Assembly: GCA_000091205.1 (NCBI GenBank)
Contig: AP006484.2
Length of the DNA: 64,000 nt
DNA from: Cyanidioschyzon merolae
Taxonomy: Eukaryota
Strand: one strand, 5' to 3'
Below are positions 15,101-63,870 of the stretch, piece by piece. Each line of letters begins with the position of its first letter. The first letter of the stretch is position 1. The notes under the pieces were generated by a model. It saw nothing but the letters and a program-made list of their open reading frames with translations, did no database searches and was not told where the DNA came from. The position numbers were made by a program, and so were the translations under genes.

Positions 15101-15144
15101 TAGCTTGTTCCGGTCGGGTTTCCCGCCGCTACTGTGTACTGCCG

Positions 15145-26437: not shown

Positions 26438-26654
26438 AAAAACCGATAAGACTTTATTTGGAGCTTCCCAATGCTTTTCAGTACCTTAACGATAACTCCT
26501 GAGACCCTCAGGAACATGACATTCCAAGGTATTTCCGACTCATCACCCCAAGGTACGCTTGATCTCATTTCTCGCGCTTCGGTAAACTTCGCGGCTTTCG
26601 ATGAGCGCCGATCGCGATGGATGCCCTAACGAAGGCAGTCTGGATGGTTATCGT

Positions 26655-28900: not shown

Positions 28901-29186
28901 GAATTCCAAGTGTATATAGTTCTATAAGATAAATAGGAAAGAACTGATCCGCTGGAACAACGTGAACAACTCAGTGTTCCGTTTTTTTCTGACACAGGTG
29001 TTGTCCCCTCTGAGGAGATCATGGGAGCCCGCCCCTTCTCTGCCACGAAACAGCACGATCGCGGTGTCACGCATGAATCGCCAAATGGCGCGCATCTTCG
29101 CCTTGCTGAAGCGTGCATGGTTCAGGTGCGCTCTCTGGGTCTGCATCCCAGCAACTTGAGGGACTTCTACGGCGATAGAGCGTCTC

Positions 29187-36457: not shown

Positions 36458-36689
36458 GGAACAAAGACCACTACACCCGCTCGAAGAGGATACTTAAATT
36501 TGCGGAGAAACAGATCGCTGCTTGCGCCATGTGCTACCCAATCACCAGTATGAACCATTTTGGAACCTAAATGTATATTTAGTTTCATTATAACCCCATG
36601 GCGGCACGTGCGGAGACTTTTGACCTGATCGTTGCTCCTTGCGTAAGGCGCTTGTAGTCTCCCAAATCAATCGTGCTCAACCCCCAGGT

Positions 36690-37600
36690 GCAAATAATCA
36701 AATGCTTTTGTCGCGGTTTAAGGCAGATGCATTCGATGGGCATTCATTTTCAAAAATTAACAATCCAAGGGAAAGGTATTGGCATGGAAGTCGAGGTTCC
36801 TGAAAGCTTGGTGTTGCCAGATCGGTGAAAAATCGGAAAAAACTTTTCTCCCAACAATCGAGCAAAGAAGAGCCAGTGCTTGAAAAGAAGTTGAAAGGGA
36901 GGCGGTCGAGAAAAAAAGTTTTGCCCAAAGGGACGATGACGAGACTGTAGTGGCACAGAGGGCATGAGTTCTAGGAATCCCTCCACTGGTGCGTACAAGC
37001 AGTAGCTAGAAACGCGTGTAATTCGTGAGCTGCGACTTAACCGCCGCCGTTAACACCAGGAGATGTGCGATGCTGAAGACGAGACCCTCAGAGCTGACGC
37101 GGACGAACTTTGTGGAGCAGCCCTTCTTGGATCGAATTGTACAAGGAGTTGAGGCGGAGAGCATGCTGCCGGTCAAAATGACTGGGAGGAGTCTGCGCGT
37201 GGGTAGATATGTGTGCTCCCAATGTTCCTAGAACGTTTATCGTTATGCTGAAGCGCATGTAAAAAGTAGTGTTGAATTCTTTCTTGTACAATAATGTGGT
37301 GCAATTTGCTGCACCCACGAGTTGAGATGAAAGAGAAAGATCAAAAACATTCAGAAATGCGATGTTTGCGCATACTGCACGTTAGGAAAGAAGAATGCCG
37401 GAGGTTTGTACGATGAATTGGATAATGACAGCAGTCAGTTTACGAACGCTCGGTCGAATGCATTCCAAATCATCTTGATTCTGGTGACGCTGTAAAGTTC
37501 AGCTGCAAAAATCGATGGAGCAACATCGAGAGCGAACAGAGATCCCTCGAAGTACTTATGAATTCCCAAGCCCTAATTGTAGCCCGTTGTATGCCAAGGC
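36690..37600 (+). mobile_element. TnpB/Fanzor-like element copy E (subfamily 2), internally deleted derivative
   Basis: Left-end-like AATGCTTTTGTCGCGG at about 36700 is joined directly to the ORF 3-prime portion (...GTMTRL... DLTAAVNTRRCAMLKTRPSEL = degenerate RuvC-III, ending ...GRSLRVGRY). It is followed by the conserved 3-prime module at 37430-37570. Confidence 0.5.
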
Positions 37601-39889: not shown

Positions 39890-41297
39890 TCGAACGTGCA
39901 CTACATGAAATGTTTCCATCCATGGCATTATAGAGCGGAACGAGTTCCAGCGAGGTAAGACGGCCACACACAATCAAGCATGAGCGTCTTCTCGCTGTCA
40001 TCAACACAGGCTTTTGCCGGGTTCTTTGTGACGAGTTCCTTCGTCCCTCCCTTATATCCTTCTTTGAATACGTCGGTCTCCCCTTTCCCTCGGCATCTGT
40101 TGTCCGCAGACGGAGGAGGTTCATGGCAGCGTTACTGTCCAGACTCCGCACGTTCCGACTGTTGGCCGCACACTTCATGCGCACGCAGGCGTTGCAATCT
40201 ATTTATCGCTTACTGCACTCATTTTCTATGTTTACGGCCTCGGTGCGCCTCTCGCAGGGATGACACCTGCTTATGGTGAAATTCCCTCACATTTCCGCCA
40301 CATATTCTATCTAGAGCGCCGCCACGTAGCGCGCGAACGCGTGCTTCATCCGTCGGTATGTGCCCTTGACATGCACAGGAGGCTCTCTTCAGTGCCCCCC
40401 TCTGTTTGGTCGTCTGGTACGGTACCCCACGATCACGGGCTTGCTGTGAGCGATTCCAGGGGTGCGTTTTCTGTCCAGCGCACACGCGAGCACACGTTGT
40501 TCCATTCGATGAAGGATTCGTCGAATGCAATACTATCTCTGATGAAACAAGAGCCGGAAGCAAGGTCGAGACTGAAGAACAATTCGAAACGTTTCGATGC
40601 ATCTACGCTCCGTTCGTGCAACCAGGTGACGCACGCTTCACCCGGGGAGATCACAGCAATGACTAAAGGCCGAGTCCGGGACCCGTTTCCGCGCAAACGG
40701 AAACTGCGGGAGCCCCTGGGCATCATACCCAGTGAGATGTGTGGTGCCGTTGTCGAAAGCCGTTTCGTCGATAGCCACAAAGAGAGGAGGATTTTTCTCG
40801 CGAACGCGATCGATTATTTGACGTGAACAGCCCAGTGAAGTTGCAACACGAGCTTGTGAAATAGCAGTCGAAGGATGGCGTCTTGGCAAGCACTTTTCCT
40901 CGTCCATCCAGGGGCGCGACATGCTGCGCACGCGAGTTGCCCTGAAACAGAAAGATCGAAGACTTGAAGAATGCGTGATCTAGGCATGCTATGTGTAAGC
41001 AAAAGAGAAGTGCCGCGGCACGTACGCGTCGAAATGTTTTACGATATCGGCTATTTTATTAGCCCGCGTTCGAGCGCGTCGCGAACCATTGTGATCATGG
41101 TCATGCGAAGTATTCCCGGGGTAAAGACTCGGAGGCATCACATCGGAAAGACGTCCGCGGATTCTCGACTGTTTGCGAATCCTCACGCGGTTATCGCTGC
41201 TTATCGGATGTCGAGCATGTACATCCCAAAAGTTCGGAAAAAATGAATGGCAAGAATAGAGTACGCATGTCAGTTTCCTTTCTTAATCCAACACGAA
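39890..41297 (+). repeat. Rep1a: 1.4-kb non-coding repeat, homologous to the 3-prime non-coding region of the TnpB/Fanzor-like elements (a non-autonomous derivative); 46 bp upstream of the GRWD1 start codon
   Basis: About 99.5% identical to 47843-49250 (all ORF-track translations are identical apart from 1-2 residues). 40780-41210 aligns to 28478-28900 downstream of copy D, and the first 100 bp align to 28125-28200. It contains the conserved module. No convincing protein-coding content. Confidence 0.7.
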
Positions 41298-41931
41298 TAT
41301 CGAGCTTGAAACCCTGTCCTGGACTCTCTCTCGAACAGAAACATCGTAGGGAGAGTATGGATGAAGGGCCTTTTACGCAATATCTGAATATGCGGAGCAT
41401 CTACCATCGTCAATCTGCATCTTAGGCCTTGGAGTATGCAAACACGATGACCAAGGCGAAGCAGAGCGAACGCGATCGATTTTTCGAAGCGGAACATGAA
41501 AATTTCCACTGTTTAGTGTAGAATCAAAATGGGTTTTCACAAGTTTCCAGCAGTGCAGAACAGTTGGTCTTCATTTTCAACGCAAACGAAGGCGCGGAGT
41601 ACTTGCGTTCCAGTCTATATATTTATTGCACCTACTAAATCGGCCACAACATGGAACAGTAATTTTAACAGTACGGAAAATCACCCTTCCCGCAGAGCTT
41701 ATTCGTCCCGACAAGAGGCCAGCACCTGCTAAACCGTATGGCGAATTCAATCCAAAAATTTTTCTGACTTCCAGCGTCAAGAACGCAGGGCCTACGTATC
41801 TTGAGGTTAAAATGTTCAAGTCGAATTTCACTCGAAATACACGGTTCTCGGGTAAGATAGGAATCAATGGTTCCAGAGTTCTCAAAATCGGGATCGAATA
41901 AACAAAAAGAGTGGGACTGCGATCTTCTTAG

Positions 41932-43290
41932 AGTTTTCATCTCAATTTTGTCGCACCCGCGCTGCGGTGCGTACAAAGAGTGATCGAAATGACTATGCAA
42001 GATACCATAGATATCGAGGTCGGATTGTCCGTAAGTTACATTCTTTACTAAACCGTGCATGGATCGCTGCATTCCTCCTTCAGGTACGTATACCATAATA
42101 TTCAGATGGTTGAGAAGCACTGAAAGAAAGAAGTATATGCACTCCGCGTCGAAAAGCGATATTTCCAGCGACTACTTGGTGGCGATGCTAGAAAATAACC
42201 CGTGGATCGAGTTAGGGAAAGCAAAACCTGCGATAATGGCTGCCACAGGCGTCCTTCTTTCCCACAAGCTTGTTCGTGTGATCCTAGAACACTGGGATAC
42301 AGTCTCAAAGAACGAGTCCTAGTTCATGCGCGGCCATCATCCACCGAAATCGGAACTATAGTGTTCCTGGCACGACGCGATCCGTAGAAAGCAGAAGATC
42401 GTCGGTTTGTTTTTTCAGTCGATGAGACTTGCTTCGGACGACACGGTCGGAGCGTATATGGGCGTTCGTGGAGCAGGGCACCCATTGTGTGTATCATCTA
42501 ACTCGAAGAGAACGATCACATCATCATCTGTTCTAGATGCAGTGGATTCATTTGGCGGCCTCAGTTTCGCTCGTGGTGGAGGCTCATGCAACAGCACCCT
42601 CTTCTTTGAATCATTGAAGACTTTTCCCTGATGTCAAGCGTAGTCCTGCTATCGGACAGCGTGACATTTTACCATTCCCTTGCGATCGAGCCTCTGCCGA
42701 TTTTATCCGGATAGGTCTGCTTGCCATTCCTCCGTGCTCTCCGTGACTAAACCCCATCGAAGAAGCGCTTTCTATCGTGAAACGTAACCATCGCTCCATT
42801 GGGTGAAGCGCTGAAGCGTTCAGCACACGGTGACACACCAGGGCACATGTCGTCTCGCTTCCGCAAGTCCTTCTTGATCCGTGAAGATCCTCACTTAAGG
42901 GCATGAAGAAGTGTGTTCGTTTTGAAGAAATACAATACCCGAGAGATGAGCTGGGGTGCACACTTCAGAACGTCGAGATGAAGAAAAGCCAGCGGAGCGC
43001 TTCGCTGGTAGAAAAGCACGGAGTGTTGAGAGAGCAGCAAATGGCGCAGACGGCACGTGTTCGAGGAATCCCGCCACAGTTGTGCTCAACGAGAGGCAAA
43101 AAAAACGCATGAAATTCTTGAACCGAGACTTCAATGCCGCTATCAATTTCAGACGGTGTGCGTTGCTGAAGACGGAACCCGAGGAGCTGAGGAGGTATAA
43201 CTTTGTGCGGCAGCCTCTCCCGGCGGAAGTCTATGAGGTGAAGATGAAAACGATAGCAGTGGGCCGGTTGAAAGAGACTGGGAGTTGTCC
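41932..43290 (+). mobile_element. Rep2a: TnpB/Fanzor-like element copy F (subfamily 2), left end plus degenerate ORF. Diverged homology to the 3-prime region continues to about 43800
   Basis: 100% identical at translation level to 55942-57290. Left end TTTTCATCTCAATTTTGTCGCACCC. Frame-consistent homology to copy D (...LVRVILEHWDTVSKNES*...FFQSMRLASDDTV...). C-terminal ...DELGCTLQNVEMKKSQRS...KKRMKFLNRDFNAAINFRRCALLKTEPEEL (RuvC-III)...GRLKET. Several in-frame stops. Confidence 0.65.
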
Positions 43291-44703
43291 GCGAATGGGT
43301 ATTAGTTCACCTTGGAAAGAACTGAAACTATCGCTCCACCGATCGTATGCAGCGGCCGCTTTGTGCGTTCCCTCTTTTCAATATATTGAGGCAAAATAAC
43401 ACTCCGGAGGAGCTTTGATAGTTCGCTTTCGTCTGAAGACTTTCATCAGAGTACAGTGGGCTCACTGTTTGAAGCTCTCGCTGAAGATAGCACTTATCAG
43501 TCATTGATTGCAACCGTTCCCAAGATCGGATATCGACTGTTCGGAGATGATCTTGTTCCCGGTACTATTGGGCATGCTTAAAAATACTTCCGCACACTAG
43601 CGCACTTTACGGAGCAGATTTTCGTCCCGCTGCAGCTGAATCTCTATGGAAGTATCACAATTTTAGAGGAGCCGCAAGAAACCCAGCACCACTCATTACT
43701 ACGAGGGAGCTCTTTCCATTCGAAGCACGCGTTCGACCTGCGTTTGCCTCGCACGCGTAAGCGTGACGGCTGACGCGCTCCTACAGCAGCGACTCTCCAT
43801 ACTCAGGGCTGCTGGGCCTTTGAAGAGCATCAACGGGCGGCCAGAATAGAAGACACATCGCATGTAAGGCGTCCGACATGCGCTGTCCGCATGCTCTATG
43901 TCGTGAAAATACCAATATCGAACCAGGAAACAAGCACTCCGAACATCATGGGCATCGAGCAACGACTACAGCGAAGACCTTTCCACGCATGAGACTAACC
44001 TTTTCAATCCAGCCCGAAAATGGAATTTCATTCAGTAGAAAAACCGTGAAGTACACGCTTGTCTCGGTTATATATGCATGCAAGCATTCATGTGTGCGAG
44101 CACTCGCGCATCTACGAGCAGCCTCTTGGTGATAGAAGCGGCACACCATCCCGCTGTGGCAAGCCGGCAGTTGGATCCACGAGACCTCGAGCTGATGCGC
44201 TTGAAAGCGCACAGTGCAGCCGTTCTACCACCATGAAGCGATCGCGGCTGGAGCGCCGCAAGCATCCACGATGCGCCGGGTACATTCAAGGTAGCTGGAT
44301 CAAGCAAGCGTTTCCCTCAAACGGGAAGGCTAATTCGGTGCTGGTGTATTGTAGGTACTTCTGTGAGGGAGCAGAGGTCTCGTCCCTGGTACTGGCAGGA
44401 TGCGCGTTCATGCGAGAATATGGACACATGTATCCTTGCCACCCTAGTAGACTCGGACGGCCAGAGGCGCGTCGCGCACCGATTCCGGTCTGTGGATCCG
44501 GGAGATGCGCTCGCATGCTGTCGATTGGGTTCTGCAGCCACAGTCGTCCAGAATACGGATCGCTGACTTTTGCGGTGTATCTATTTTTAGGTTCTAAGGA
44601 TTCGGGTGTTTTTTTGCGAGTTGTGGTTCACTTACAGCATAGACACGCCGTAAACGCTTGTCGCGCGCGGCACCTGTCGAACGTCCGAACTTTTTACAAT
44701 CCT

Positions 44704-45798
44704 ATGAAATTCGGCAAGAGGTTGAGGGAGACGGTCGAAAGGGCCCCCGCTGAGTGGAGGGGTCTCTTCATTGACTACAAGGGCCTGAAGAAACTACTGA
44801 AAAATGAAGTAAGCTTTTGCCAGCAGCCAAGCGCTGAAAAGGCGATCACGGTTGTCTCTGAGGCTACGCAACAAGGCGTGAACGCAAATAGTGCCGCGGA
44901 AGCGGAACCTGCGCAGGGGCCCAGCGAGAGTGCCCTCGTACCCGAGTCCAGCGTCCCACCAGGGGAGCACCAGGGCGAGTCGGTGGTGTGTGCTGCGCGA
45001 ACTGGAGAGTTCAGAATCCAGGGGCACGTTGGGGCCTCAAAAAAGCGCGTGCGGGTGTCGTGCTCACCGCCAGTCTCAAGCACTGCTGACTCTGACTCAG
45101 ATACCGATATTTCGGATGCACCACCTCTGGAGTTTTTGGAACAGGTCAATAGAGAGCGCATCCCGCGAAAACAAGATAGCCACGGATTTTTTGACTTGCT
45201 TCATCAAGAGCTGGATAAGGTTAATGATTTCTTCCTTGAGCAGTTGGAGGATTTAATTATCCGGAGCGAGATCTTACAAAGAGATACGGCAAATTTTTTC
45301 GTTTTATGCAAATCTCAGCGAAGTTTCCACTTTAGAGATATTGAAAATCTATCGCGTAGACTTTACAGACTTCATGATGACCTCGTGCTTCTTCAAAACT
45401 ATGCTGCCGTGAACTATTTGGGCTTTCGAAAAGCCCTCAAGAAATATGACAAGAAGAAGAATACTCGGCTGCGGAGAACATATCTTGCTGGTGTTCTTGG
45501 GACGCCTTTTTTCCTGCAGAGCGAGAATTTGCGATCTTTGATCTTGGAGACAGAGCGTCGGTTGAGTTTATTACAGCATCTTGCATCATCGCAGAGTGAC
45601 AATCAGGATACAAGTCCCGCGAAGATGGCGTCGCCTTCTTTCAGAGAATCAGCCACTGAAAAGGATATCCGAGAAACTGCGCACGAGGAACATCCAGAAC
45701 CAGTCAAAGTCAGGCAAGCGGAAAGCCTAGATTCTGAAAAATTATCTGATTCCGGCTCGAGATTGAGTCAGAGAGAAGCTGCTGTTCATCAGGGTTGA
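44704..45798 (+). CDS. SPX-domain protein (SPX-only class)
   Basis: Begins with the canonical SPX N-terminus MKFGKRL...EW...FIDYKGLKK and has the second/third SPX subdomain (LHDDLVLLQNYAAVNYLGFRKALKKYDKK). The ORF track extends upstream to 44059 in frame, but SPX domains start at MKFGK, so the start is set at 44704. No additional C-terminal domain. Confidence 0.75.
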   Translation: MKFGKRLRETVERAPAEWRGLFIDYKGLKKLLKNEVSFCQQPSAEKAITVVSEATQQGVNANSAAEAEPAQGPSESALVPESSVPPGEHQGESVVCAARTGEFRIQGHVGASKKRVRVSCSPPVSSTADSDSDTDISDAPPLEFLEQVNRERIPRKQDSHGFFDLLHQELDKVNDFFLEQLEDLIIRSEILQRDTANFFVLCKSQRSFHFRDIENLSRRLYRLHDDLVLLQNYAAVNYLGFRKALKKYDKKKNTRLRRTYLAGVLGTPFFLQSENLRSLILETERRLSLLQHLASSQSDNQDTSPAKMASPSFRESATEKDIRETAHEEHPEPVKVRQAESLDSEKLSDSGSRLSQREAAVHQG

Positions 45799-45930
45799 TA
45801 CAATTATTGTATCGACAGGAGCTGGTCCAAGCATCATAGATTATGCGTCAGCTGATCGCGAACTTGCTCAAACACGTACGTGCTCGGAACTATGATTGCA
45901 TTTCGTTGTGCGTATCCGCTTTCCGCTGCG

Positions 45931-47016
45931 TTACTCCATTGAAGTGATCCCGTCTTGTCGATCTTGAGAGTCTCGTTTGCGCAAATTAGCCATGAGGAAT
46001 CCAACGAGTACGAGAGACGCCCCGAGCAAATACATTGAGCCATATTTTGTGCGTCTTAAGATTGCATCGGCCAGGACCGAGAAAGGAATTGTCAGCGACA
46101 AGGCTAAGGACGCCGCCAGAGCAGAAGCGTAGCAAATGGCAAGCGCCCACAGGTAATTGCTCAGAACGCCACCTACCAGAGCGTTGGTAAGCATTAACCA
46201 TAACGTCCTCCGAGGGGGAAAATCGATGCTTTCTACTCTGCAGAAATGGCAGATAAGAACGATCGGCCATCCGAATGCGAGACATATTCCCCCGAGTGAC
46301 CCTAAAAAACGACTCACTTTCAGCTCATGCTGCAGTGCAAACTGTCTCTTAATAAGAACAGTTTGAAATGCGTAAAGTATGGCGCCCAAGAACGCTAAGG
46401 CATCGCCCAGCGCTGTTCGCGTGCCTGCAGAAGACGCATCGGACGCAGATACCAAGCACAGGCCTCCAACATTCAGCACGACAGCAAGGATGTGGAGCCT
46501 GCCGAAACGCTCAACTTTGAGGAGCGAGCCGAAGATGAGCACGAACACGCACGAGAGCGACGAAATGATGGACGATGACGCAACTGAAGTGTAGGTCAAG
46601 CTAAGGTTGTAAAGACAGTTGGACATAAACCAGAATGGAGCAATTTTCCAGCTGCTTTGGAGCGTTTCTCCAATACAGCTTCGAAGCCGTTCAGCAAGCC
46701 CCTGTTGAAGGGACAGCTGGTTCCCCAGGTTCTGAGAAGCTGTCTCAAAATCACGCGTTCCCGGCTCGACAGATTTTCTGAACACAAAATCTCTCTCCAC
46801 AACCGTCTCCGTTGCGTTTTGAAGCTGCCCAGCTCCAAATTTACAAGGAGGAACCAAAAAAAGCAGAACGAACAGCGACTGCGAGAGGTAGCTGTAAAGA
46901 ACGGGCTTTGAAAATGAGTCTTCCCGAAATACTATTTGGATAAGCTCACTCGACGCCACCCAAAGAACGGCAACGGCAATAAGTAACAGAATCCCATACA
47001 GATGGGTATAAGCCAT
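45931..47016 (-). CDS. EamA/DMT-superfamily transporter, SLC35F5 / Thi74-like
   Basis: Ten hydrophobic segments and diagnostic stretches (NCLYNLSLTYTSVASSSIISSLSCVFVLIFGSLLKVERF; YLWALAICYASALAASLALSLTIPFSVLADAIL) matching the SLC35F3-5 family. Confidence 0.7.
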   Translation of the reverse strand: MAYTHLYGILLLIAVAVLWVASSELIQIVFREDSFSKPVLYSYLSQSLFVLLFLVPPCKFGAGQLQNATETVVERDFVFRKSVEPGTRDFETASQNLGNQLSLQQGLAERLRSCIGETLQSSWKIAPFWFMSNCLYNLSLTYTSVASSSIISSLSCVFVLIFGSLLKVERFGRLHILAVVLNVGGLCLVSASDASSAGTRTALGDALAFLGAILYAFQTVLIKRQFALQHELKVSRFLGSLGGICLAFGWPIVLICHFCRVESIDFPPRRTLWLMLTNALVGGVLSNYLWALAICYASALAASLALSLTIPFSVLADAILRRTKYGSMYLLGASLVLVGFLMANLRKRDSQDRQDGITSME

Positions 47017-47842
47017 GATCCAAGATACGAGTGAAGTTTAGCCAAGGTTTTCAGTGCTCTGCGTCATGGTCGAGCTGCGTTAAACAGAAGAAACTTGTTT
47101 TGTCAAATTTAACTAGACACCTAGGTGGACCACGGCGTCTCGCGGGATTCGGATGAGTAGTTCTGTGGCTCGCCTCGACTGTATCAATCCGCTGGTCGAC
47201 GTAGCCTCCATGAACTTGACGAGGATTCTGGCAACGCAGGGATAAAGAGCGGTCTCGTTTCCTCGAAAGACGCTCGTTACGAAAGTAGCATTCATTGGGA
47301 GAAAGCCGCTAAATCAGAGTTGACGTTGAATGCTGCTCGCTCAGGTCTTTTGTGCTCCCTGCTGAGCATTAACTCGCTTTAGAGTTCCGACATTTTCGGT
47401 CAATTTCCGCTATTTCATCCGCTTATTTCTGGCAAACTTTTCCGCTCTGAGCTGCTTTCGATCTGGGTAGCCAGCGTTTATCCCGTGCGAGAATCGCTTC
47501 TCACAGGAAGCCACAGATTGCTGTTCTCGACCAACGGAATGTCCGTATGACAGTAAACCTGTGGGACGCAGAAACCAGCTCGTTCCAGGCTGTGCAAATC
47601 GCTACTTTGTATGGTTTAAGTTTGATGAATCCTCTCTGAATCCTCTATACATGCAAATGCGAAAACCCGGCTTTCAGGAAAGGAACCGTAGATCCTCCGC
47701 AGAAACCTACATATACCACAAGCTCCTGACTCGTATCAGCGCCAGCAATAGAGTTAAGATCGACCAAGCGTGCCTTCTAGAATCGGGCTCGCTGTAAAAG
47801 CTCTAAATGGCACTGGATGCGCTGCGGCATGCGATACTCGAA

Positions 47843-49250
47843 GAGCACATGCACTGCATGAAATGTTTCCATCCATGGCATTATAGAGCGGAACGAGTTC
47901 CAGCGAGGTAACACGGCCACACACAATCAAGCATGAGCGTCTTCTCGCTGTCATCAACACAGGCTTTTGCCGGGTTCTTTGTGACGAGTTCCTTCGTCCC
48001 TCCCTTATATCCTTCTTTGAATACGTCGGTCTCCCCTTTCCCTCGGCATCTGTTGTCCGCAGACGGAGGAGGTTCATGGCAGCGTTACTGTCCAGGCTCC
48101 GCACGTTCCGACTGTTGGCCGCACATTTCATGCGCACGCAGGCGTTGCAATCTATTTATCGCTTACTGCACTCATTTTCTATGTTTACGGCCTCGGTGCG
48201 CCTCTCGCAGGGATGACACCTGCTTATGGTGAAATTCCCTCACATTTCCGCCACATATTCTATCTAGAGCGCCGCCACGTAGCGCGCGAACGCGTGCTTC
48301 ATCCGTCGGTATGTGCCCTTGACATGCACAGGAGGCTCTCTTCAGTGCCCCCCTCTGTTTGGTCGTCTGGTACGGTACCCCACGATCACGGGCTTGCTGT
48401 GAGCGATTCCAGGGGTGCGTTTTCTGTCCAGCGCACACGCGAGCACACGTTGTTCCATTCGATGAAGGATTCGTCGAATGCAATACTATCTCTGATGAAA
48501 CAAGAGCCGGAAGCAAGGTCGAGACTGAAGAACAATTCGAAACGTTTCGATGCATCTACGCTCCGTTCGTGCAACCAGGTGACGCACGCTTCACCCGGGG
48601 AGATCACAGCAATGACTAAAGGCCGAGTCCGGGACCCGTTTCCGCGCAAACGGAAACTGCGGGAGCCCCTGGGCATCATACCCAGTGAGATGTGTGGTGC
48701 CGTTGTCGAAAGCCGTTTCGTCGATAGCCACAAAGAGAGGAGGATTTTTCTCGCGAACGCGATCGATTATTTGACGTGAACAGCCCAGTGAAGTTGCAAC
48801 ACGAGCTTGTGAAATAGCAGTCGAAGGATGGCGTCTTGGCAAGCACTTTTCCTCGTCAATCCAGGGGCGCGACATGCTGCGCACGCGAGTTGCCCTGAAA
48901 CAGAAAGATCGAAGACTTGAAGAATGCGTGATCTAGGCATGCTACGTGTAAGCAAAAGAGAAGTGCCGCGGCACGTACGCGTCGAAATGTTTTACGATAT
49001 CGGCTATTTTATTAGCCCGCGTTCGAGCGCGTCGCGAACCATTGTGATCATGGTCATGCGAAGTATTCCCGGGGTAAAGACTCGGAGGCATCACATCGGA
49101 AAGACGTCCGCGGATTCTCGACTGCTTGCGAATCCTCACGCGGTTATCGCTGCTTATCGGATGTCGAGCATGTACATCCCAAAAGTTCGGAAAAAATGAA
49201 TGGCAAGAATAGAGTACGCATGTCAGTTTCCTTTCTTAATCCAACACGAG
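47843..49250 (+). repeat. Rep1b: second copy of the 1.4-kb non-coding Rep1 repeat, offset +7,953 bp from Rep1a
   Basis: Near-identical to 39890-41297. Lies between the SLC35F5-like gene start region and the DTD gene 3-prime end. Confidence 0.7.
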
Positions 49251-49718
49251 TGTAGCGTCTCGATGCCACGAAATTGTATTCTCTCCCGGACACGAAACTA
49301 GGATGCTCAATGTCGTGTTTTCCTGAAAGACCGTTTGAGGTTCCTCTGATCGACTTCATATTATCCTATCGATCCTGACAATCTTGTGCTATAGACGGAG
49401 CGGATTCTGGTTCACGTGTTGCTCCAAAAACAGAGGTTTATATTGTTTTTCTACGACTCCGAATCTTTCTGCGAAATCGGAGAAATGGTGCTTTCTGCAG
49501 CTGGTACTGGTTCAATCTCGCTCTCGCAGAGAAGCAGGGTGCCAAGTTTCGCTTCGGAGAGTGGCTTACGAAATCAATATCGTCTCATTCACGTCTCGAA
49601 CGTTCATGCGGAAAACATTATGATGTCCGTTGAATATTTTCAGCTGAGAAAGAAATCCTGATCTTTCGTTCTGTAAAACAGTGCTCAGCAGTTTCTGTCA
49701 GCATCTCATTCAGAGTGT

Positions 49719-50204
49719 TCACCACTTGGGTTGCTTCGTATCCACCAAGATGGTTACTGGTCCGTCATTTACCACGGAAACGTTCATATAACTTCCAAAC
49801 ACACAACATTTCACGGCTTCGGGATTGGGCATTTTGCTTCTCAAGGTCGTGAATACTCTCTCAAAAAAGGCCTTTGCTTCTCGGGGGGCCATGCTACGGT
49901 GAAACGACAACGACTTGTTGCTTTTGAAAACAGCATGCAACGTAAACTGCGAGATCAGAAGCACTTCACCGCAAGTGTCTTTGACACTTTGCGCCCAGCG
50001 GACGCGCTCCTCTTTCGAGCCCTCACCGCTGCTTCCGTCTGAAAATATCCGAACCTCAGCTATGCGGCGACAAATCAAGTCGACATCCTCGTTGGTGTCA
50101 TCCTGGGCAATACCGACGAAAACACAGAGGCCGCGGCCGATCGACTCCGTCTTTCCACCGCCTGAAACCGAAGCCTGTGCAACTCGCTGAATCACTGCCC
50201 TCAT
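49719..50204 (-). CDS. dtd: D-aminoacyl-tRNA (D-Tyr-tRNA) deacylase
   Basis: MRAVIQRVAQASVSGGGK...IGRGLCVFVGIAQDDTNEDVD...ISQFTLHA (DTD fold with SQFTL motif), 161 aa. Confidence 0.8.
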   Translation of the reverse strand: MRAVIQRVAQASVSGGGKTESIGRGLCVFVGIAQDDTNEDVDLICRRIAEVRIFSDGSSGEGSKEERVRWAQSVKDTCGEVLLISQFTLHAVFKSNKSLSFHRSMAPREAKAFFERVFTTLRSKMPNPEAVKCCVFGSYMNVSVVNDGPVTILVDTKQPKW

Positions 50205-50453
50205 ATCCTACTTACGGCAGGTGGCAGAGAACCAACTGGAGCGTCTGTCTAAACACCAAAAGTTACCATTTTGAATACGGTTTGCCTAGCCAGTTTTACG
50301 CGCTTGATCGAGCATGCAATTCCATTCCATGCCAACATGGTAAAGAATTTGGTGCTGTCGTTGTGCAGTTTTTCGAACGCTGCTGTTTTTTTAATGAGAA
50401 AATATATTTGGGAACCGTTCCGGAGAGGTATATAAGCTTGTCGAGCCATCCCT

Positions 50454-50990
50454 ATGTCCCTTAAAGGTGTGGCTTTCTTCCTACTCAAAGGTGTGGCGGA
50501 ACTCTCAAAGAACGCGACGTCCCTTTTGAAACTGGCTTCCGCCGTTTATTTTTTCCAGAAAAATGTTGGCGAGCTCATGCTCTGCGTGGGCCCTTCTATG
50601 TTGCCAACTTTGAGCGCAAACGGGGACGTCGTTATTATGGAACACTTCACTCCGAGGTTCAGAGAACTAAAGAGAAAAGACATCGTAGTTGCTGTCTCGC
50701 CGTTGAATCCAAACATGAGCGTTTGCAAGCGTGTGACCGGTTTGGAGGGCGACAAACTTGTGGTAGGACAAGCTACAGCCGAAGCAGTTTTTCAAATTCA
50801 TCCTGAGATCGTTGAAAGAACGGAATACGGGAGCTTTGTTCGGGTTCCGAGCGGCCATGTATGGCTCGAGGGAGACAACGCGATAAACAGTACAGACTCT
50901 CGCCAGTATGGTCCTGTATCTGTTTCTCTGATCCGCGGTCGGGTTCTCTGCAGAGTGTTGCCATTGAATGCGGCGGGACGTGTTGATTAG
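50454..50990 (+). CDS. Mitochondrial inner-membrane peptidase subunit (IMP1/IMP2-type, S26 signal peptidase family)
   Basis: GPSMLPTL (catalytic Ser), GDIVVAVSP, CKRVTGLEGD (catalytic Lys), GHVWLEGDN, STDSRQYGPV. 178 aa. Confidence 0.8.
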   Translation: MSLKGVAFFLLKGVAELSKNATSLLKLASAVYFFQKNVGELMLCVGPSMLPTLSANGDVVIMEHFTPRFRELKRKDIVVAVSPLNPNMSVCKRVTGLEGDKLVVGQATAEAVFQIHPEIVERTEYGSFVRVPSGHVWLEGDNAINSTDSRQYGPVSVSLIRGRVLCRVLPLNAAGRVD

Positions 50991-53900
50991 AACGATACCG
51001 CCGTGTGGAAATCGTCTCCGCGAAGCGTCGCGAGCGAAAAGGAAACTGCATTGTGTCGCACTCTGCACCATCCTGGTATCTGCTTCAAGTTGCGCACGCT
51101 GCTCCTTTAAAGTTGGTTTATTTTCGGCAATCAACCCTCTATGCTCGTTGCAGAAGAATACTGCGATCGCGAGGAACTCCCACCCTCGAGGAATCATATC
51201 ACAATGACTGCGATGTTGCTCCATCCTCTCGTGCTTCCTCGATATTACTTGCGCAGTCGTTTAGAAAGCTACTGTACTGAGAAATTTTCAACAAGTTAGG
51301 CGACGGTTGAAAACAGCACTGAATCTAGTTGGGCTGCGTACACGCACGGAAACGGCAGGAATTGCTCAGCGTGCTGCTCGAAGCGGGAGAGCAGTTCGCC
51401 ACCGGTTTCGGACTAATGGAACACTGGACTGCGCTCTATTCTCCTGCTTTTCAAGCTTTCAGAACTTCTTTAAATGTGCAGCCTCGTGACTCGAGTGCAG
51501 GAATAAGGGCTTGCGAATTAAAATGTGGTTTTACAGTTTACGGAAGTCTTTCCACGGAGGCCTCTTCGACTCTTTGCCGATGGAACTCGATGTCCACGAA
51601 ATCAAGATGAAGCGCTACCTTCTAATAAGGGTTTGTAACATAAAGGATATCATTATCCAGTTCATATGCCCAAGCCTTCGCTCGTCCCCTTTCCTTACAC
51701 GTAGCATGGTCAATCCACGAAGTCTTCAAGTCTTGAATCATTCTGTGTTTAGGCAACTCTAGCGCGCAACATATTGCGCTGCTGTGTCGTCTAGGAAAGA
51801 GAATTCAACAGTGTCCCTTGACGACTTCTTCACAAGTTCAGAGCGAAGTCTCATTGAACTTATCACGACGAATAATCGATTCCGTTAGATAGAAAAATCG
51901 GTCCCTCTCTGCGGCGACCGGCGATACTGCATTCGACAGGAGAATGATACCTCTCAGGATGTGTGCGCCTAGAAGCGCCGGTCAATTCTGCTCGCAAGCG
52001 CAGGTAACTTGGACTCGGATCTCAGTCGTCGCAAGAATCGCTTCCAGTAATGCGTGCGTCTCCGCCTTCAGTGAAGCGAGCGTTGACAAATCGAAATTCC
52101 GCTTCTATTTCTCCAGCCAGGATTTTTCCTTCCGTTGCTTGTTTCATCATGGACAATATCGAGTTCTACAATTCATTCCTAGAATAGAACGGATTGCGCT
52201 TTCAAGTATAGCGACTAGAATATTCGCCGAGGGAGTCGCTCAGAATAAACTCGTGATAGCAGGGTACGGTACCGAACTTGGAAACTGAGAGAAGCGCCTG
52301 TGGAAGTCTTAAATACATGCCACGGAAATGCACCGAGCCATGAAGCAAGCGTTCACAAGTCGCATGTCGGCACTTGGGGAAGTACGTGTGGTGAACGTAC
52401 GGGACCAACCGAACGCAGCCAGGTCCCACCACTGCGAAGAGCTCACCGAGGATGTGTTTTAAGAAGTTGAAAACGGCAATTGGTACCTAAATAGAAAAAA
52501 CATCCTCCTGTACATGAAAGAGTCAACAACAGGTGGAAGCAGGGAGACAGGGAATTTAACGTTGCTACCAGCGTCATTTGACTGTCTGAATCGGAACTGG
52601 GGAAAGTAAAGACCAACATATTTAGAGCAGGAGACCATAGAAAGGAAAAGAAGCTGTCCCTGCGAATGCCGGCAAAAGCCTTTGTTAAAGACCGCGAGAC
52701 GAGAACCAAACTTTGATAGGAATTTCCGAGCGAGCCATGTGGAACACTTTCGATCTTAGTCTCACATGAATGTACTGCAGATGGTGGGCACGCCCTTTAT
52801 AATGAATAAATGTCTGATAATGCCTCTTTACAACTTATATTCAGGAGATTCTAGAAGAAGCAACCGTGCCGTGGATCTTTGATACTGTAAGTGGGAGGAG
52901 ATTTGGAACTCCTACCTCTTCATCCTCTTGACTAATCGCGCACAAAAGCACTCCGACACTTTAACTTGACTAGCTACAACAGACTAATATTTCGTAACCT
53001 CAGGTTACCCCTGGCTCATCTTCAAAGAAAATAAATTTTTCCAGGAGGTACTAAATATGGACAACGTCCAAGAAAAATTCAAAATACGTCATCGAAATCG
53101 CCCTGCTGCGAAAATTAGAAATTCGCTCAGATCTGAAATTTTTGAAAGGCAAATTTCGCTCCCGTGTGCCTTAATAGATGTCTCCCAACAGAATGATTTA
53201 ATGTATTCATAAGCTCAGCCCAAATCGTTCCGGCCTGCGTGAAAACTGATAATTAATTTTTCTTCGTATTCAACGATTAGACTCAACACTGGGCTCGTCG
53301 AACTTGACCATCGTAAAATTTTGCTGCTTCTGTTGATTATATAGGATTCGTTTTTACTGGACCGTCTGCCAAGATCTATACGCAACTAGTGAGTATGGAA
53401 CCTTTACCGCATACTGAGTGCCAGTGGAGTCTAAGTTAATCTTTAATCTTTTTTTCAGGCTGAGGGCCTGCAGCCTTGTTTCTGAGAAAAATACCTGTCA
53501 GAGACCCCGTTGAAACTACGGTGAGCGGTGGAACCATCAAGAGTTACTCTCGGCATCGTTGCGTTTCTCCATATAGAACGCTTTTGGAGAATCCGGCCAA
53601 TAATGAGGGAACTGCGTTCTGAGACTTGACGGAGATTGCTCGAAAAACAAAAAAAGTATTATTGTCATGCGTGGTTCGAACCGCGTCAGATATTCGTGCG
53701 CCTCTTAATGCCAAATGTGGTAGTCGGTGTCACTATCGCATGCTCGCATCCCATCCTGGCTATCTGGTAATGATTTGAGCCTTCGCAATTACTAGTTGAA
53801 TTGCATCTATCCAAGCAATTGGTATCTCAGAAATCCTTTCAGATCATCTCGTGGAATTACACACTTCGAAATAAAACTCAATAAATCCATTTGCGAGTAC

Positions 53901-54283
53901 TGTCTGAACGAAGGCCTTTTGCGCAAGTGAAGGTAGATATCGCGCTTCGTAGGCTCTTCCACTAATTCCTAACCACGACGAACTTGCAGGAAGCGTCAAA
54001 CTGTCCACAAGAGATATTGCATTTAGCCGTGGTCCCGCCTGTCCAAAAAAACCGGTGCCACGGCAGCCACACTCGCTTATCAAGTTTACGTTTGTCACAG
54101 ACACTGCGTGACTGCTCGAAGGCGTCTGCAAACAAATACAGTCTTTCATGCGCCATTCCCGTTAAAAGAAGCTGCTCAAACGGACCCTGTACAGATCATT
54201 TTTACTTGAGTACATACATTATCATAATTGACATCGAGGCAAACAATGGTCGCCGCCGAGTGACTCGCCCAATCTAAGCTCTC

Positions 54284-55867
54284 CTAGAAGATCGAGTCGG
54301 CTAAAGCACCCAAATACTGAGCCATTTTCTCATTCTTTGCAGTACCATCCCCATCCTTGTACATAATGGACAAAAAACGCGTCGCAGGGAGGCTGCCAAG
54401 CTCATGTGCAGCTTGAAGAACAAAAAATGCATGTTTCGCATTTCGCTGGATTCCTAGACCATGATAAACCATCATCCCAGCGGTGTAAAGGCAGTCAGCT
54501 GCGGACTGTATGTTCTGCTCCTCCGCGTGGATCTGTGCTGCGTCAAAGAAGAGTCGCAACGCCTTTTCATAGTCGCGCTCCACCTCGAATTTGCCCGCAT
54601 ATATCGCCTCTGCGAGAAACTGCATTGCACCTGCATGTTCGAGATCAGCTGCGATCGCAATATGATGGTGAAATCGTTTCAAACTCAGAGCGATAGGGCC
54701 GTCATATACTTCGTGCAGGAGCGTGCCGCAGAAGATGCGTGCGAGGACAAAGTGTGCATCTGGGTGACCTTTGGAAGCTGCTTTCTGGAGTTGGTCCATA
54801 CCCTTTGCATAGTCGATGTCTTGTCCGAGATCTCCCATGATATATATGCAACCCAACTCATGTTCAGCGTGCATGTCCCCCATATTGGCAGCATGTTTGA
54901 GACATCCCAAGGCCTTTGCAATATTCGACGGTTTTGTTTCTCTGTAGTAGGCCGCCAGCTGTACATATGCGTTCAAGTCGCCTTCATCGGCTGCCTCCTC
55001 TAATAACTTCAGCGCTTTGGCTGGATCAGCCCTTACTGGGTGGATGCCTTCCAAGAAGAAAGCCGCGAGGGCAGTTTTCGCTTCGGCAACTCCCGAACCC
55101 GCTGCCAACTGAACATAATGAAAAGACTTGTCATAAAGATCGTCTAAACTATCTCCAACGCTTCTCCGGCCTTCCGCGTCTTCTGATTCAGCTGAAGGCA
55201 GAGACTCGGTGCCGATTGTGATACGCGCCCTCTGCAACTCATTCCGCAGAGCGTCGGGAAACGCCGTAAGATTCGAGTCACGCATTACTGATGAAGCGAG
55301 TGCACGCAAGTCTCCAATAAATGCTGCATTCTGTTCCCGCGCTTGCAATGTTGCCTGTTCCTGATATGTTAAACCTAGAAGGTATTGAGCATGTGGGAAG
55401 CCTGCTGCGGCTGGTAACCGCAGAAGCTCTCGCAGCTCCTTAAGATCTTGAGTGCTCCTTCGCGGCTTTTTAAAATACTTCACTAGAGCGTAGGCCACCC
55501 GCGCGGTGGCGCTTGAGAGTGACATAGCCTGGTTGTCGTCGGATATATACTGTTGCGCAAACGCAAGCGCTTCCTCACGGCCCCGTTTCTCGAGGAGCTC
55601 ATCGAAAACTTTTTCCGAAAAGATGCGGTGCTCCTCACCTAGTGTGCTGAGATAGCGTTTTAAGCTTCTTACACTGAACTCTGTGCGAGCGCTATCCTTC
55701 TGGAACCCTGTGTAGCGCAGAGCCGAGTGAAACGAACGGGCAGCACCGAGCTCCCTCGCAGTTTGGGCAACAGTACGCGAACTTGGCCTGCTGTTACACA
55801 AGACAAGTAGCCGCTTACCAATAATTGCCAACCGATTTGCACAAATACGGCTCATTAGCTTTGCCAT
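54284..55867 (-). CDS. Sel1-like repeat (SLR/TPR-like) protein
   Basis: Multiple roughly 36-aa Sel1 repeats (A..YxLGxxY...G.G...D...A..WY..AA..G...A) through the C-terminal two-thirds, e.g. AYVQLAAYYRETKPSNIAKALGCLKHAANMGDMHAEHELGCIY and DYAKGMDQLQKAASKGHPDAHFVLARIF. Confidence 0.65.
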   Translation of the reverse strand: MAKLMSRICANRLAIIGKRLLVLCNSRPSSRTVAQTARELGAARSFHSALRYTGFQKDSARTEFSVRSLKRYLSTLGEEHRIFSEKVFDELLEKRGREEALAFAQQYISDDNQAMSLSSATARVAYALVKYFKKPRRSTQDLKELRELLRLPAAAGFPHAQYLLGLTYQEQATLQAREQNAAFIGDLRALASSVMRDSNLTAFPDALRNELQRARITIGTESLPSAESEDAEGRRSVGDSLDDLYDKSFHYVQLAAGSGVAEAKTALAAFFLEGIHPVRADPAKALKLLEEAADEGDLNAYVQLAAYYRETKPSNIAKALGCLKHAANMGDMHAEHELGCIYIMGDLGQDIDYAKGMDQLQKAASKGHPDAHFVLARIFCGTLLHEVYDGPIALSLKRFHHHIAIAADLEHAGAMQFLAEAIYAGKFEVERDYEKALRLFFDAAQIHAEEQNIQSAADCLYTAGMMVYHGLGIQRNAKHAFFVLQAAHELGSLPATRFLSIMYKDGDGTAKNEKMAQYLGALADSIF

Positions 55868-55941
55868 TGTGCAAGCCCGTCGGGGGCTACTGAAAACATT
55901 CTGAAAAACGAGTCACTAGTGTTCTATATTGAAGTGTTGAA

Positions 55942-57290
55942 GTTTTTCATCTCAATTTTGTCGCACCCGCGCTGCGGTGCGTACAAAGAGTGATCGAAAT
56001 GACTATGCAAGATACCATAGATATCGAGGTCGGATTGTCCGTAAGTTACATTCTTTACTAAACCGTGCATGGATCGCTGCATTCCTCCTTCAGGTACGTA
56101 TACCATAATATTCAGATGGTTGAGAAGCACTGAAAGAAAGAAGTATATGCACTCCGCGTCGAAAAGCGATATTTCCAGCGACTACTTGGTGGCGATGCTA
56201 GAAAATAACCCGTGGATCGAGTTAGGGAAAGCAAAACCTGCGATAATGGCTGCCACAGGCGTCCTTCTTTCCCACAAGCTTGTTCGTGTGATCCTAGAAC
56301 ACTGGGATACAGTCTCAAAGAACGAGTCCTAGTTCATGCGCGGCCATCATCCACCGAAATCGGAACTATAGTGTTCCTGGCACGACGCGATCCGTAGAAA
56401 GCAGAAGATCGTCGGTTTGTTTTTTCAGTCGATGAGACTTGCTTCGGACGACACGGTCGGAGCGTATATGGGCGTTCGTGGAGCAGGGCACCCATTGTGT
56501 GTATCATCTAACTCGAAGAGAACGATCACATCATCATCTGTTCTAGATGCAGTGGATTCATTTGGCGGCCTCAGTTTCGCTCGTGGTGGAGGCTCATGCA
56601 ACAGCACCCTCTTCTTTGAATCATTGAAGACTTTTCCCTGATGTCAAGCGTAGTCCTGCTATCGGACAGCGTGACATTTTACCATTCCCTTGCGATCGAG
56701 CCTCTGCCGATTTTATCCGGATAGGTCTGCTTGCCATTCCTCCGTGCTCTCCGTGACTAAACCCCATCGAAGAAGCGCTTTCTATCGTGAAACGTAACCA
56801 TCGCTCCATTGGGTGAAGCGCTGAAGCGTTCAGCACACGGTGACACACCAGGGCACATGTCGTCTCGCTTCCGCAAGTCCTTCTTGATCCGTGAAGATCC
56901 TCACTTAAGGGCATGAAGAAGTGTGTTCGTTTTGAAGAAATACAATACCCGAGAGATGAGCTGGGGTGCACACTTCAGAACGTCGAGATGAAGAAAAGCC
57001 AGCGGAGCGCTTCGCTGGTAGAAAAGCACGGAGTGTTGAGAGAGCAGCAAATGGCGCAGACGGCACGTGTTCGAGGAATCCCGCCACAGTTGTGCTCAAC
57101 GAGAGGCAAAAAAAACGCATGAAATTCTTGAACCGAGACTTCAATGCCGCTATCAATTTCAGACGGTGTGCGTTGCTGAAGACGGAACCCGAGGAGCTGA
57201 GGAGGTATAACTTTGTGCGGCAGCCTCTCCCGGCGGAAGTCTATGAGGTGAAGATGAAAACGATAGCAGTGGGCCGGTTGAAAGAGACTT
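55942..57290 (+). mobile_element. Rep2b: second copy of TnpB/Fanzor-like element copy F/G (subfamily 2), offset +14,010 bp from Rep2a, truncated at the 3-prime end
   Basis: All ORF-track translations are identical to the 41932-43290 set. Similarity to Rep2a ends at GRLKET, after which this copy reads WRRL* (stop at 57302-57304) while Rep2a continues into diverged 3-prime-region sequence. Confidence 0.65.
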
Positions 57291-57585
57291 GGAGGCGCCT
57301 CTGACTAAGTGTTATTTTAATCTTCCTGGTGGTGGAATGTTTTTAGTTTTACTGAGCCTATGGTGCAGATTCCACGATGATTTCGGATACGATTTTTCGT
57401 CGTTGCACTTGCGAGGGTGCACCGGTCAGAAGTAGAGCCGCGAACTTTCCGCTGTTTAAGACGCCGAATAAGTTTCCGTGGGTAGAAGGGCATCGTTTGC
57501 TTCTTTGTGTCGACCGGCCAAAAGAGTGGAGCCTGTGAGAGGTACGTCCACCACGACGAGGGATCTGTAGGGCAGAAGCCTGCCA

Positions 57586-61249: not shown

Positions 61250-62200
61250 GACGTTGTTTAGCGAAAAATGCCTCCTACTCTGGGAAGATTCGTCTTCCTT
61301 CTCTCGCCTTGACACACATCCTCAAGCGACTGTTGGTAGGATTGTAGGAGACAGGACGGGCAGCTGTCCAGAGTCTGCCGTTACGTATTCAGTCCAACCC
61401 TGGTGCGACAACTGATGCTCTCGATGGAAGACGGAATACATACCCGGCTTTTCTATGGCTGTATCTCATCGAGAGTCGGGCATGTTCGACGCTACGAGGC
61501 GCACCAGCAAGCGGAATGTCGGCGTCACGACCTGTCTTGACACACTGGGCTTCGCATCGAGCAGGGAATGATGCTCCAGACGCCTCTCATAGAGTATACA
61601 TGATCGTCCGGATGGGTCATACGGGCGCACTTTGGCTAAAGCACATGCATCCGTGTTGAGGTCGCCAACGTTTCCGGTTATTCGGAGGGGAAAAACGTGC
61701 ACTCGCAACTCTCTCGTTGCATTCGATGAGGAATTGGCAGACGTGTTGCGTCTGTTCTTTGGTTGTAGCCTACGGCGCTGGATATGCTGTTGGGCGCGAG
61801 GGTCGCACTCGTGCCGCATGTGGAGCACACAAAGAGTGCAGCAACCCATGCTGCACGATGCCCGTCTTTGCGTACAGGACGGCATACATATATTGCGAGC
61901 ACAGGTGCGCACTGAAACCTGCACGGGAGAAGAGCGTGAATCGACGCTGGATGCACGGGATGTCGCACAAAAAGCTGACCGAAGGTCAGGTTACGAGAAC
62001 ATTGACCGTGGGCGGCTTGGCTTGGTGTGATTCGACCAGGAACAACGCGCACAAGCACTTGCTGCAGCATGACTTGAAGGTTTCGATCAGCAGTCGGGAC
62101 TATCCCACGCTTCCAAAGCGACCAGCGGCTTTATCTTCGGAGGAATTTGGAGGGAGTCCTTTCGCAGCTAGTGTGGGCATTGTGCTGGAACGCTGAAGGC
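61250..62200 (+). pseudogene. TnpB/Fanzor-like nuclease element, copy H, strongly diverged and degenerate
   Basis: ...IQSNPGATTDAL (RuvC-I-like)...SHRESGMFDA...LVVAYGAGYAVG...C..C...FAYRTAYIYCEHRCAL...LTEGQ..., colinear with the copy B motifs (VVGAEPGNT / YYRESEI / VVAYGVGQW / TCNEC / DEFRTSYTHHELGCTL / LTEGQ). Confidence 0.45.
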
Positions 62201-63639: not shown

Positions 63640-63870
63640 GGTCTAGCACATGCACTCAGCTCGTATGCTCGACGAACGTACAATCTCGTTCAGTTGCATT
63701 AAGTGAAGTTCTATTGCATGCACTCAGCTCGCATGCTCGACGAACATGCAATCTCGTTCAGGAGCACAAAGGAAAGGTCTACTGCATGCGAGCGACTCTT
63801 GTTTTGGACTAACATCCGAAATGGCTCTGGGGTACTGTGTCAAGGTCTCCTGCATGCGAGCGACTGTGTC
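63640..63870. repeat. Short tandem repeats (two roughly 63-bp units, then two roughly 45-bp units ending TGCATGCGAGCGACT)
   Basis: Direct reading: GCACTCAGCTCG(T/C)ATGCTCGACGAAC(G/A)T(A/G)CAATCTCGTTCAG occurs twice (63650-63770), then ...TGCATGCGAGCGACT(C/G)T occurs twice (63780-63870). Confidence 0.5.

Follow-up and report, generated by a model that had tools for sequence, protein, structure and literature searches.

Two near-identical copies of a dead CMe-1A (Fanzor1) derivative in Cyanidioschyzon merolae are probably old and kept alike by ectopic gene conversion

The repeats and their locus

The DNA analysed here is a stretch of 64,000 nucleotides from the red alga Cyanidioschyzon merolae (contig AP006484.2, assembly GCA_000091205.1), referred to below as the window. 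It carries two copies of an element, here called B, that derives from CMe-1A, a C. merolae transposon family encoding a Fanzor1 protein. Self-BLAST of the window aligned B1 (41934–43284, plus strand) with B2 (55944–57294, plus strand) as direct repeats over 1351 bp at 99.93% identity. The sole mismatch is G at 43280 versus T at 57290, and the 1346 bp to the left of it (41934–43279 in B1) contain 0 differences. The copies are spaced 14,010 bp apart, start to start. Both begin with TTTTCATCTCAATTTTGTCGC, their upstream flanks are unrelated, and their left edge is also the left edge of their family, since homology to an older copy, F4, begins there. An initial annotation, made from the letters alone, had described two 100%-identical 1.35-kb copies of a discrete element at this spacing, with the same left end and unrelated upstream flanks. 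The repeat, the spacing, the left end and the element-derived nature of the unit were all recovered, and its coordinates for both copies differ from the self-BLAST edges by just 2–6 bp; the complete identity, however, falls short by the one mismatch over 1351 bp. Nor is the second copy cut after the residues GRLKET, as had been stated: both copies run on for ~15–25 bp, with different tails that are homologous to CMe-1A.

Interleaved with B is a second pair of direct repeats, A, whose copies A1 (39894–41296) and A2 (47847–49249, between B1 and B2) match over 1403 bp with 8 mismatches by self-BLAST. The order in the window is W-A1-u-B1-X-A2-Y-B2-M, where W is the side of a WD40 gene and M the side of a Myb-like gene. 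The A repeat is a dead, unclassified element. Its minus strand contains a DDE-like motif (FVAIDETAFDNG), but it gave no match in Pfam and no homology to the DDE part of B detectable by tblastx, and neither the CMe-1A consensus nor the CMe-1 protein matched Fanzor sequence in it. Older A-like relics are present at 21316–22394, 28174–28917 and, inverted, 51424–52743, adjoining F4 and within block Y.

A unique spacer of 637 bp, u (41297–41933), leads from A1 to B1. Block X (43285–47846) holds an SPX-domain gene (about 44.6–45.8 kb, plus strand) and an EamA/SLC35F transporter gene (45931–47016, minus strand), both assigned by Pfam. Block Y (49250–55943) holds, again by Pfam, genes for a D-Tyr-tRNA deacylase (49719–50204, minus strand), an S26 peptidase (50454–50990, plus strand) and a Sel1-repeat protein (54284–55867, minus strand), together with the inverted A-like relic, which was detected by tblastx. 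Pfam recognised five host genes between the B copies, where the initial annotation had counted six, and the interval also holds A2 and the A-like relic.

The locus was compared with 35 independently assembled loci (L001–L035) from JGI metagenomes, ENA assemblies and Logan SRA assemblies, which were retrieved by exact-protein look-ups and one DNA pattern scan. Look-ups with the 798-aa Myb-like gene, two open reading frames (ORFs) of spacer u and the window version of the A ORF gave no match. These outside loci are 98.7–99.8% identical to the window, and all eight repeat/flank junctions recur in them: W/A in L008–L017, L025 and L030; A/u and u/B in L027 and L035, which confirm the spacer; B/X in L003, L004, L007, L024 and L027; X/A in L003, L004, L007, L027 and L029; A/Y in L001, L003, L019, L026, L029 and L030; Y/B in L001, L002, L007, L019 and L026; and B/M in L006 and L035. 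Block X is represented in L003, L004, L007, L024 and L027, block Y in L001, L007, L019 and L026, and A2 is crossed in full by L003, L027, L029 and L030. Short-read contigs usually end 30–130 bp into a repeat. Four contigs containing only A (L031–L034) are collapsed versions of 1402 bp that end at the repeat edges, and in scaffold L028 the part that holds B lies between a run of N and the scaffold end, corresponds exactly to 41935–43279 and is likewise read as a collapsed repeat. The right end of B occurs in only two right-flank contexts in the metagenome contigs.

Composition of B and its relatives in the window

Three-frame translation revealed no long ORF in B, although two decayed remnants were recognisable. 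At its left end is a piece of CMe-1A leader (41934–41988 in B1, 55944–55998 in B2; plus strand), which by-eye comparison placed at consensus ~791–850 and which carries a small terminal hairpin with a fold energy of −19.2 kcal/mol. It is followed by a DDE_3 transposase pseudogene (41989–42904 and 55999–56914, plus strand), which is absent from the CMe-1A consensus and is broken by frameshifts and stops. Its recognisable motifs are spread across frames: FSVDETCFGR, VVLLSDSVTFYHS (including LLSDSVTFYHS) and LAIPPCSP*LNPIEE. When these frames were stitched together, with one in-frame stop replaced by D, the translation matched Pfam PF13358 (DDE_3) with an E-value of 6.2e-9 and 36.3 bits against a cut-off of 28.6. 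Pfam recognised no transposable element in the raw, unstitched ORFs of B, A, F2 and F4, and a search for homologues of the stitched sequence, a degenerate and partly wrong-frame query, found none at E ≤ 1e-3. A second leader piece (42905–42945 and 56915–56955, plus strand; consensus ~860–907) ends at the Fanzor start codon, where an internal deletion joins it to consensus position 2737.

The remainder of B is a 3' fragment of Fanzor1 (42946–43306 in B1, 56956–57310 in B2; plus strand). By blastn, 42946–43292 and 56956–57300 correspond to consensus 2737–3084 at 70% identity (E 6e-39), and by tblastn the fragment covers aa 608 to ~729 of the 734-aa CMe-1 protein in two frames. The B1 fragment spans aa 608–723 with one frameshift, and in B2 the homology to CMe-1 continues to aa 729, 16 bp beyond the point where B1/B2 identity ends. 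These last ~350 bp read ELGCTLQNVEMKK and then KFLNRDFNAAINFRRCALL, followed by VGRLKET. The only RuvC motif left is RuvC-III (NRDFNAAINF); RuvC-I (GADPGN) and RuvC-II (VDEFRTS) are deleted, consensus positions 1–790 and about 908–2736 being missing and with them most of the Fanzor1 ORF. B is thus neither a full-length (~3.2 kb) CMe-1A with a 734-aa Fanzor1 nor the holder of a complete RuvC triad (D...E...D). With the first two motifs gone and a frameshift in what is left, B cannot give rise to a nuclease. The earlier label of nuclease element was right about the ancestry of the C-terminal fragment and wrong about a functional nuclease. B is an internally deleted, non-autonomous CMe-1A chimera with a DDE_3 pseudogene, and it encodes no working protein. 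No terminal inverted repeats (TIRs) were found at the ends of B, A or the DDE insert, and comparison of their flanks, which the initial annotation had proposed as a check, revealed no TA or other target-site duplication (TSD). The edges of B thus offer a DDE enzyme nothing to act on as transposon ends.

CMe-1A was described by Bao & Jurka (2013, Mob DNA 4:12, PMC3627910) as a Fanzor1 transposon family with a 3169-bp consensus and a 734-aa Fanzor1 protein, present in about 150 copies, each ~80% identical to the consensus, without TIRs and with the TSD undetermined. Some C. merolae copies still encode an intact Fanzor1, while the classification of the family and its transposase were left open (PMC3627910). 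The consensus, taken from supplement 2 of that paper and aligned to the window by blastn, matches five other places in the window at 68–87% identity. A near-full-length copy at 10–2643 (consensus 480–3095), aligned over 10–2631 at 79.5% identity, is truncated where the window begins and has its Fanzor1 ORF in at least four frame segments. Two further matches lie at 13026–14043 (minus strand, 86.8%) and 14111–15135 (83.6%). The remaining two, each matched in two pieces, are F4 (26654–28114, plus strand; matched at 27642–28114) and F5 (36661–37207, plus strand; matched at 36667–37200). F4 is an older paralogue of B, ~68% identical, in which the leader, the DDE pseudogene and the 3' end of Fanzor follow one another as in B; its internal deletion differs (~1070 to ~2831). 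F5 is an internally deleted mini-CMe-1A that lacks the DDE insert and has the same deletion junction as F4. Since B and F4 share the insert with different deletions, and F4 and F5 share the deletion while differing in the insert, the history of these copies is reticulate, which implies either that dispersed derivatives of CMe-1A recombined with one another or that an ancestor with two genes has been lost. The same insert in the same place in B and F4, at only 68% identity, suggests that a former two-gene (DDE_3 plus Fanzor1) element may have been the ancestor.

A tblastn search of the window with the CMe-1 protein (734 aa) turned up no intact Fanzor1 gene. A fuller paralogue has a 222-aa ORF (13051–13719, minus strand) with hundreds of unnamed metagenome relatives. 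A profile built from 40 full-length relatives of the family, gathered by exhaustive hidden Markov model search, matched the Fanzor1 structures 9cf0 (Parasitella, 1.4e-19), 8gkh (Spizellomyces, 1.4e-11) and 9cer (Guillardia, 6e-5), and 6 of the 40 relatives matched Pfam PF07282. A profile of the close relatives alone returned nothing relevant from PDB, the close family proteins matched PF07282 only faintly (E 0.09–0.24), and AlphaFold2 run on a 38-sequence alignment gave an unusable model (mean pLDDT 48). Because it matches both the CMe-1A consensus and, as a profile, the solved Fanzor1 structures, the repeat family of the window is Fanzor1. Together with the intron-poor genes and the provenance of the matching contigs, this transposon family makes a Cyanidioschyzon-like host, a hot-spring red alga, the most likely one.

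Other arrangements of this family were also seen. At 12995–15168 two CMe-1A 3' halves stand head to head in a 2.2-kb imperfect palindrome, with arms 75% identical. The plus-strand arm (14072–15094) aligns with CMe-1 aa 392–729 as one tblastn segment in a single frame, and a 75-bp tandem duplication (13969–14118) lies within the acidic-repeat region of the Fanzor ORF. More distant Fanzor1-like relics at 19142–19979 (minus strand) and 61585–62175 (plus strand), with 24–31% amino acid identity to CMe-1, suggest that the genome may contain a second, older Fanzor family.

Age of the copies and alternative explanations

The outside contigs allow the identity of B1 and B2 to be set against the divergence of the locus. 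Both insertion sites are occupied in lineages ~1% diverged, as the junctions u/B, Y/B, B/X and B/M all recur in contigs that differ from the window by 0.3–1.3%. The B body of the window haplotype (A-G-A-A...) is present at both loci. An alternative haplotype (G-A-T-C...), with 12–13 differences from the window, all between 41976 and 42659, is linked to u (L027, L035), to Y (L007, L026), to X (L007) and to M (L035), and the B bodies of L035 and L007 are one base apart. Intermediate haplotypes also occur (L002, L019). Orthologous B copies of different lineages therefore differ by ~1%, whereas the paralogues of the window differ by 0% over 1346 bp, which is the signature of interlocus gene conversion. 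The alleles of A1 and A2 are mosaic among lineages in the outside contigs.

On the right side, the identity of the two copies appears to end inside homologous sequence. The B1 tail (43280–43306, plus strand; GGGAGTTGTCCGCGAATGGGT) shares homology with the ends of two older copies, from 28095 in F4 and from 37185 in F5. The B2 tail (57290–57310, plus strand; TGGAGGCGCCTCTGACTAAGT) matches CMe-1A consensus 3072–3082 in register, and its translation (KETWRRL*) resembles that of CMe-1 (KKTGRRLHVS, to aa 729 by tblastn). After the shared GGAG the two tails differ at 9 of 16 positions, although the tails are short and an unanchored shuffle test was non-significant. In every outside contig the B1 tail is found with the X (SPX-side) flank and the B2 tail with the M (Myb-side) flank.

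We interpret B1 and B2 as old, non-functional copies that have been kept near-identical by ectopic (interlocus) gene conversion, that is, by concerted evolution, and put the probability of this at roughly 0.7. Conversion between the two direct copies would maintain the near-identity. The converted tract would run from the left edge of the element to ~15–25 bp short of its right end, and because it would stop there, B1 and B2 would keep different tails. The interleaved A1/A2 pair would have been homogenised in the same manner. We infer from these patterns that transfer occurred as gene conversion by homologous recombination, and likewise its direction and timing. Homologous recombination is efficient in C. 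merolae and is exploited for gene targeting.

Several observations weigh against gene conversion. The identification of the B2 tail as a CMe-1A end rests on ~16–20 bp, with 9 of 10 positions matching in register and, for B1 and B2 alike, non-significance in unanchored shuffles. On the left side the identity reaches the element edge, which would fit copying of the whole element equally well. The lineages were assigned from contigs of mixed-population metagenomes rather than phased genomes. Within sample ERZ27249350, 7 sites in the first 250 bp separate the B that is joined to u in L035 from the B that is joined to Y in L019, so that either homogenisation is incomplete in places or two strains are present. 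Finally, gene conversion leaves the origin of the second B copy unexplained.

Some properties of the population were noted alongside these data. The wild population is non-clonal: pairwise differences between contigs (L001–L035, projected on 37700–60280) are inconsistent from block to block, and several haplotype classes occur in X, Y, A and B among the outside contigs. The inconsistency between blocks suggests recombination between strains of the alga. Constraint on the right 620 bp of B, which is free of single-nucleotide polymorphisms (SNPs), was considered and rejected, as 620-bp windows with 0–1 SNPs are also found elsewhere in the region.

A different order of the segments is a somewhat unlikely alternative. 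Under this reading B does exist twice, but the arrangement shown by the window has a counterpart or is wrong; crossing-over within the repeats might also keep the two orders side by side, or a deletion form together with a 14-kb circle or tandem unit. Because A and B interleave (A..B..A..B), short reads cannot fix the order of the segments, and the same eight junctions fit both W-A-u-B-X-A-Y-B-M, as in the window, and W-A-Y-B-X-A-u-B-M. In the latter the B copies would be 7,953 bp apart, with just the SPX gene, the SLC35F gene, A and u between them, so both the distance of 14,010 bp and the list of enclosed genes depend on the order. Six outside contigs cross a whole repeat, and they disagree. 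L003 and L029 read X-A-Y, as in the window, while the alternative order is followed by L030 (W-A-Y), L027 (X-A-u-B), L007 (Ga0080006_1121216; A-Y-B-X-A) and L035 (ERZ27249350 k141_227032; A-u-B-M). The Y-B-X passage of L007 and the u-B-M passage of L035 moreover look like what a crossover between B1 and B2 would yield, a circle or tandem product in the first case and a deletion product in the second. However, L029 and L030 are of one lineage as far as block Y goes (0–1 differences) and yet thread A oppositely, so at least some passages through the repeats must be arbitrary choices of the assembler; lineage-specific gene orders, which the repeat-crossing contigs might have revealed, are weakened by the same disagreement. 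The window contig spans all four copies, by a method of assembly that is unstated, and a deletion form would cost this haploid alga five probably essential genes.

That the A and B pairs are active substrates of recombination, switching the gene order or releasing a 14-kb unit with five housekeeping genes, is doubtful. The switch would proceed by crossing-over, or by excision via one pair followed by re-integration via the other, and if this were true, hot-spring populations of the alga would be polymorphic for gene order here. The initial annotation had anticipated that direct repeats this similar can recombine ectopically, deleting or duplicating the block between them. The B body haplotype common to both loci within lineages supports the ectopic exchange itself, and the consequences for gene order have the standing given above to the alternative order.

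The 0–1 base differences over 1351 bp could also mean that the copies are young: a discrete element would very recently have been duplicated or have transposed, one copy being a new insertion of the other. A left boundary that coincides with the family left end, next to unrelated upstream flanks, is what such an event would leave. We nevertheless consider it improbable. TIRs and a TSD are lacking, and neither the transposase nor the Fanzor ORF is intact, which also counts against the independent insertion that had been suggested. The identity appears to end 15–25 bp before the homology to CMe-1A does, and the tails beyond it differ. Both sites are filled in ~1% diverged lineages, each lineage with its own shared haplotype, and the right end is found in two genomic contexts only. 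The same filled sites and the halt of identity ahead of diverged tails speak against the description of the copies as very recently duplicated.

Fanzor and TnpB guide RNAs are normally encoded in the 3' region of the element, and B keeps the 3' ~350 bp of CMe-1A. An intact CMe-1 Fanzor1 from elsewhere, of the kind still present in some C. merolae copies (PMC3627910), might then be guided by RNA of the B 3' end to cut near the copies and so stimulate their conversion. This is very improbable. The window has no intact Fanzor1 gene, an Rfam search of the whole window matched no family, and eight CMe-1A 3' ends folded together with RNAalifold gave a weak consensus structure (−13 kcal/mol, covariation term −0.9, only 3 covarying pairs). 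The SNP-free right half of B is unexceptional against the local background. The A pair, too, appears homogenised, and neither the CMe-1A consensus nor the CMe-1 protein detected Fanzor sequence there.

That a single B copy was doubled by the assembler is hardly credible, even though near-perfect repeats in long contigs can come from mis-assembly and short-read contigs do break at the B edges, because B has two left flanks, two right flanks and distinct tails, repeatedly recovered in JGI, ENA and Logan assemblies, and one copy cannot yield four flanks; with eight of eight junctions confirmed outside the window the duplication is real, and the earlier worry over a local assembly artefact is fair for the segment order only.

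Other window features and relation to known systems

Two further features of the window lie away from the repeats. At 63642–63865 there are about three tandem copies of a 68-bp unit with 75–81% identity. Between 4000 and 8000 the G+C content locally reaches 62–65%, against about 50% elsewhere, and many long overlapping spurious ORFs occur. This stretch covers a thioredoxin-like ORF and a 1057-aa ORF (3557–6730, minus strand) that, from HSDLKPAN and DFG motifs recognised by eye, looks like a putative protein kinase.

B resembles CMe-1A in that its right ~350 bp and its ~55-bp leader are homologous to the 3169-bp consensus, in that the at least six further CMe-1A-derived copies of the window, at 68–87% identity to the consensus, lie near the ~80% reported for C. 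merolae, and in that it too lacks TIRs and a recognisable TSD. It departs from the published consensus in carrying a DDE_3 pseudogene in its leader. The placing of a DDE gene of mariner/IS630 type upstream of Fanzor1 in one element is shared with the Fanzor1-carrying Tc1/mariner elements (PUl-1 and PGv-1, Bao & Jurka 2013; Mariner/Tc1 associations, Jiang et al. 2023). Those elements, however, have TIRs, TA TSDs and often intact genes, whereas B has neither TIRs nor TSDs and both its genes are wrecked. The likeness to IS630/Tc1-mariner transposases consists in the Pfam DDE_3 match and in motifs of the D..D..E region (DET.., ..SDS..H.. and ..SP-LNPIEE), but B holds a pseudogene only. Nozaki et al. 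(2007, PMC1955436) report no more than eight class II elements for C. merolae, each of them closest to transposases of bacteria, and an IS630-like DDE_3 relic, as predicted here, would fit that picture.

In its population pattern the locus resembles repeats under concerted evolution by ectopic conversion, such as yeast Ty/delta elements and segmental duplications. The copies are alike within a genome and different between lineages, haplotypes are common across loci, alleles are mosaic, and on the right side the identity tract appears to end inside homologous sequence. The present case differs in that conversion is inferred from metagenome contigs of a natural population, and in that the interleaved pairs add ambiguity of order.

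On its own the B pair is an ordinary dead-transposon duplicate. If our reading is right, it warns against dating repeats by their identity, since copies that are 100% identical would here be old and homogenised. The ambiguity that interleaved repeats create in the assembly graph matters to those who use this contig for synteny or gene order. For the family, which is itself known, the DDE_3-containing CMe-1A variant is previously undescribed; a CMe-1A derivative with a DDE_3 gene bears on the transposase question left open by Bao & Jurka (2013), and the insert hints that the family may once have travelled with a transposase of IS630/mariner type. That the shared insert marks a hitherto unrecognised partner transposase of CMe-1A is a doubtful reading.

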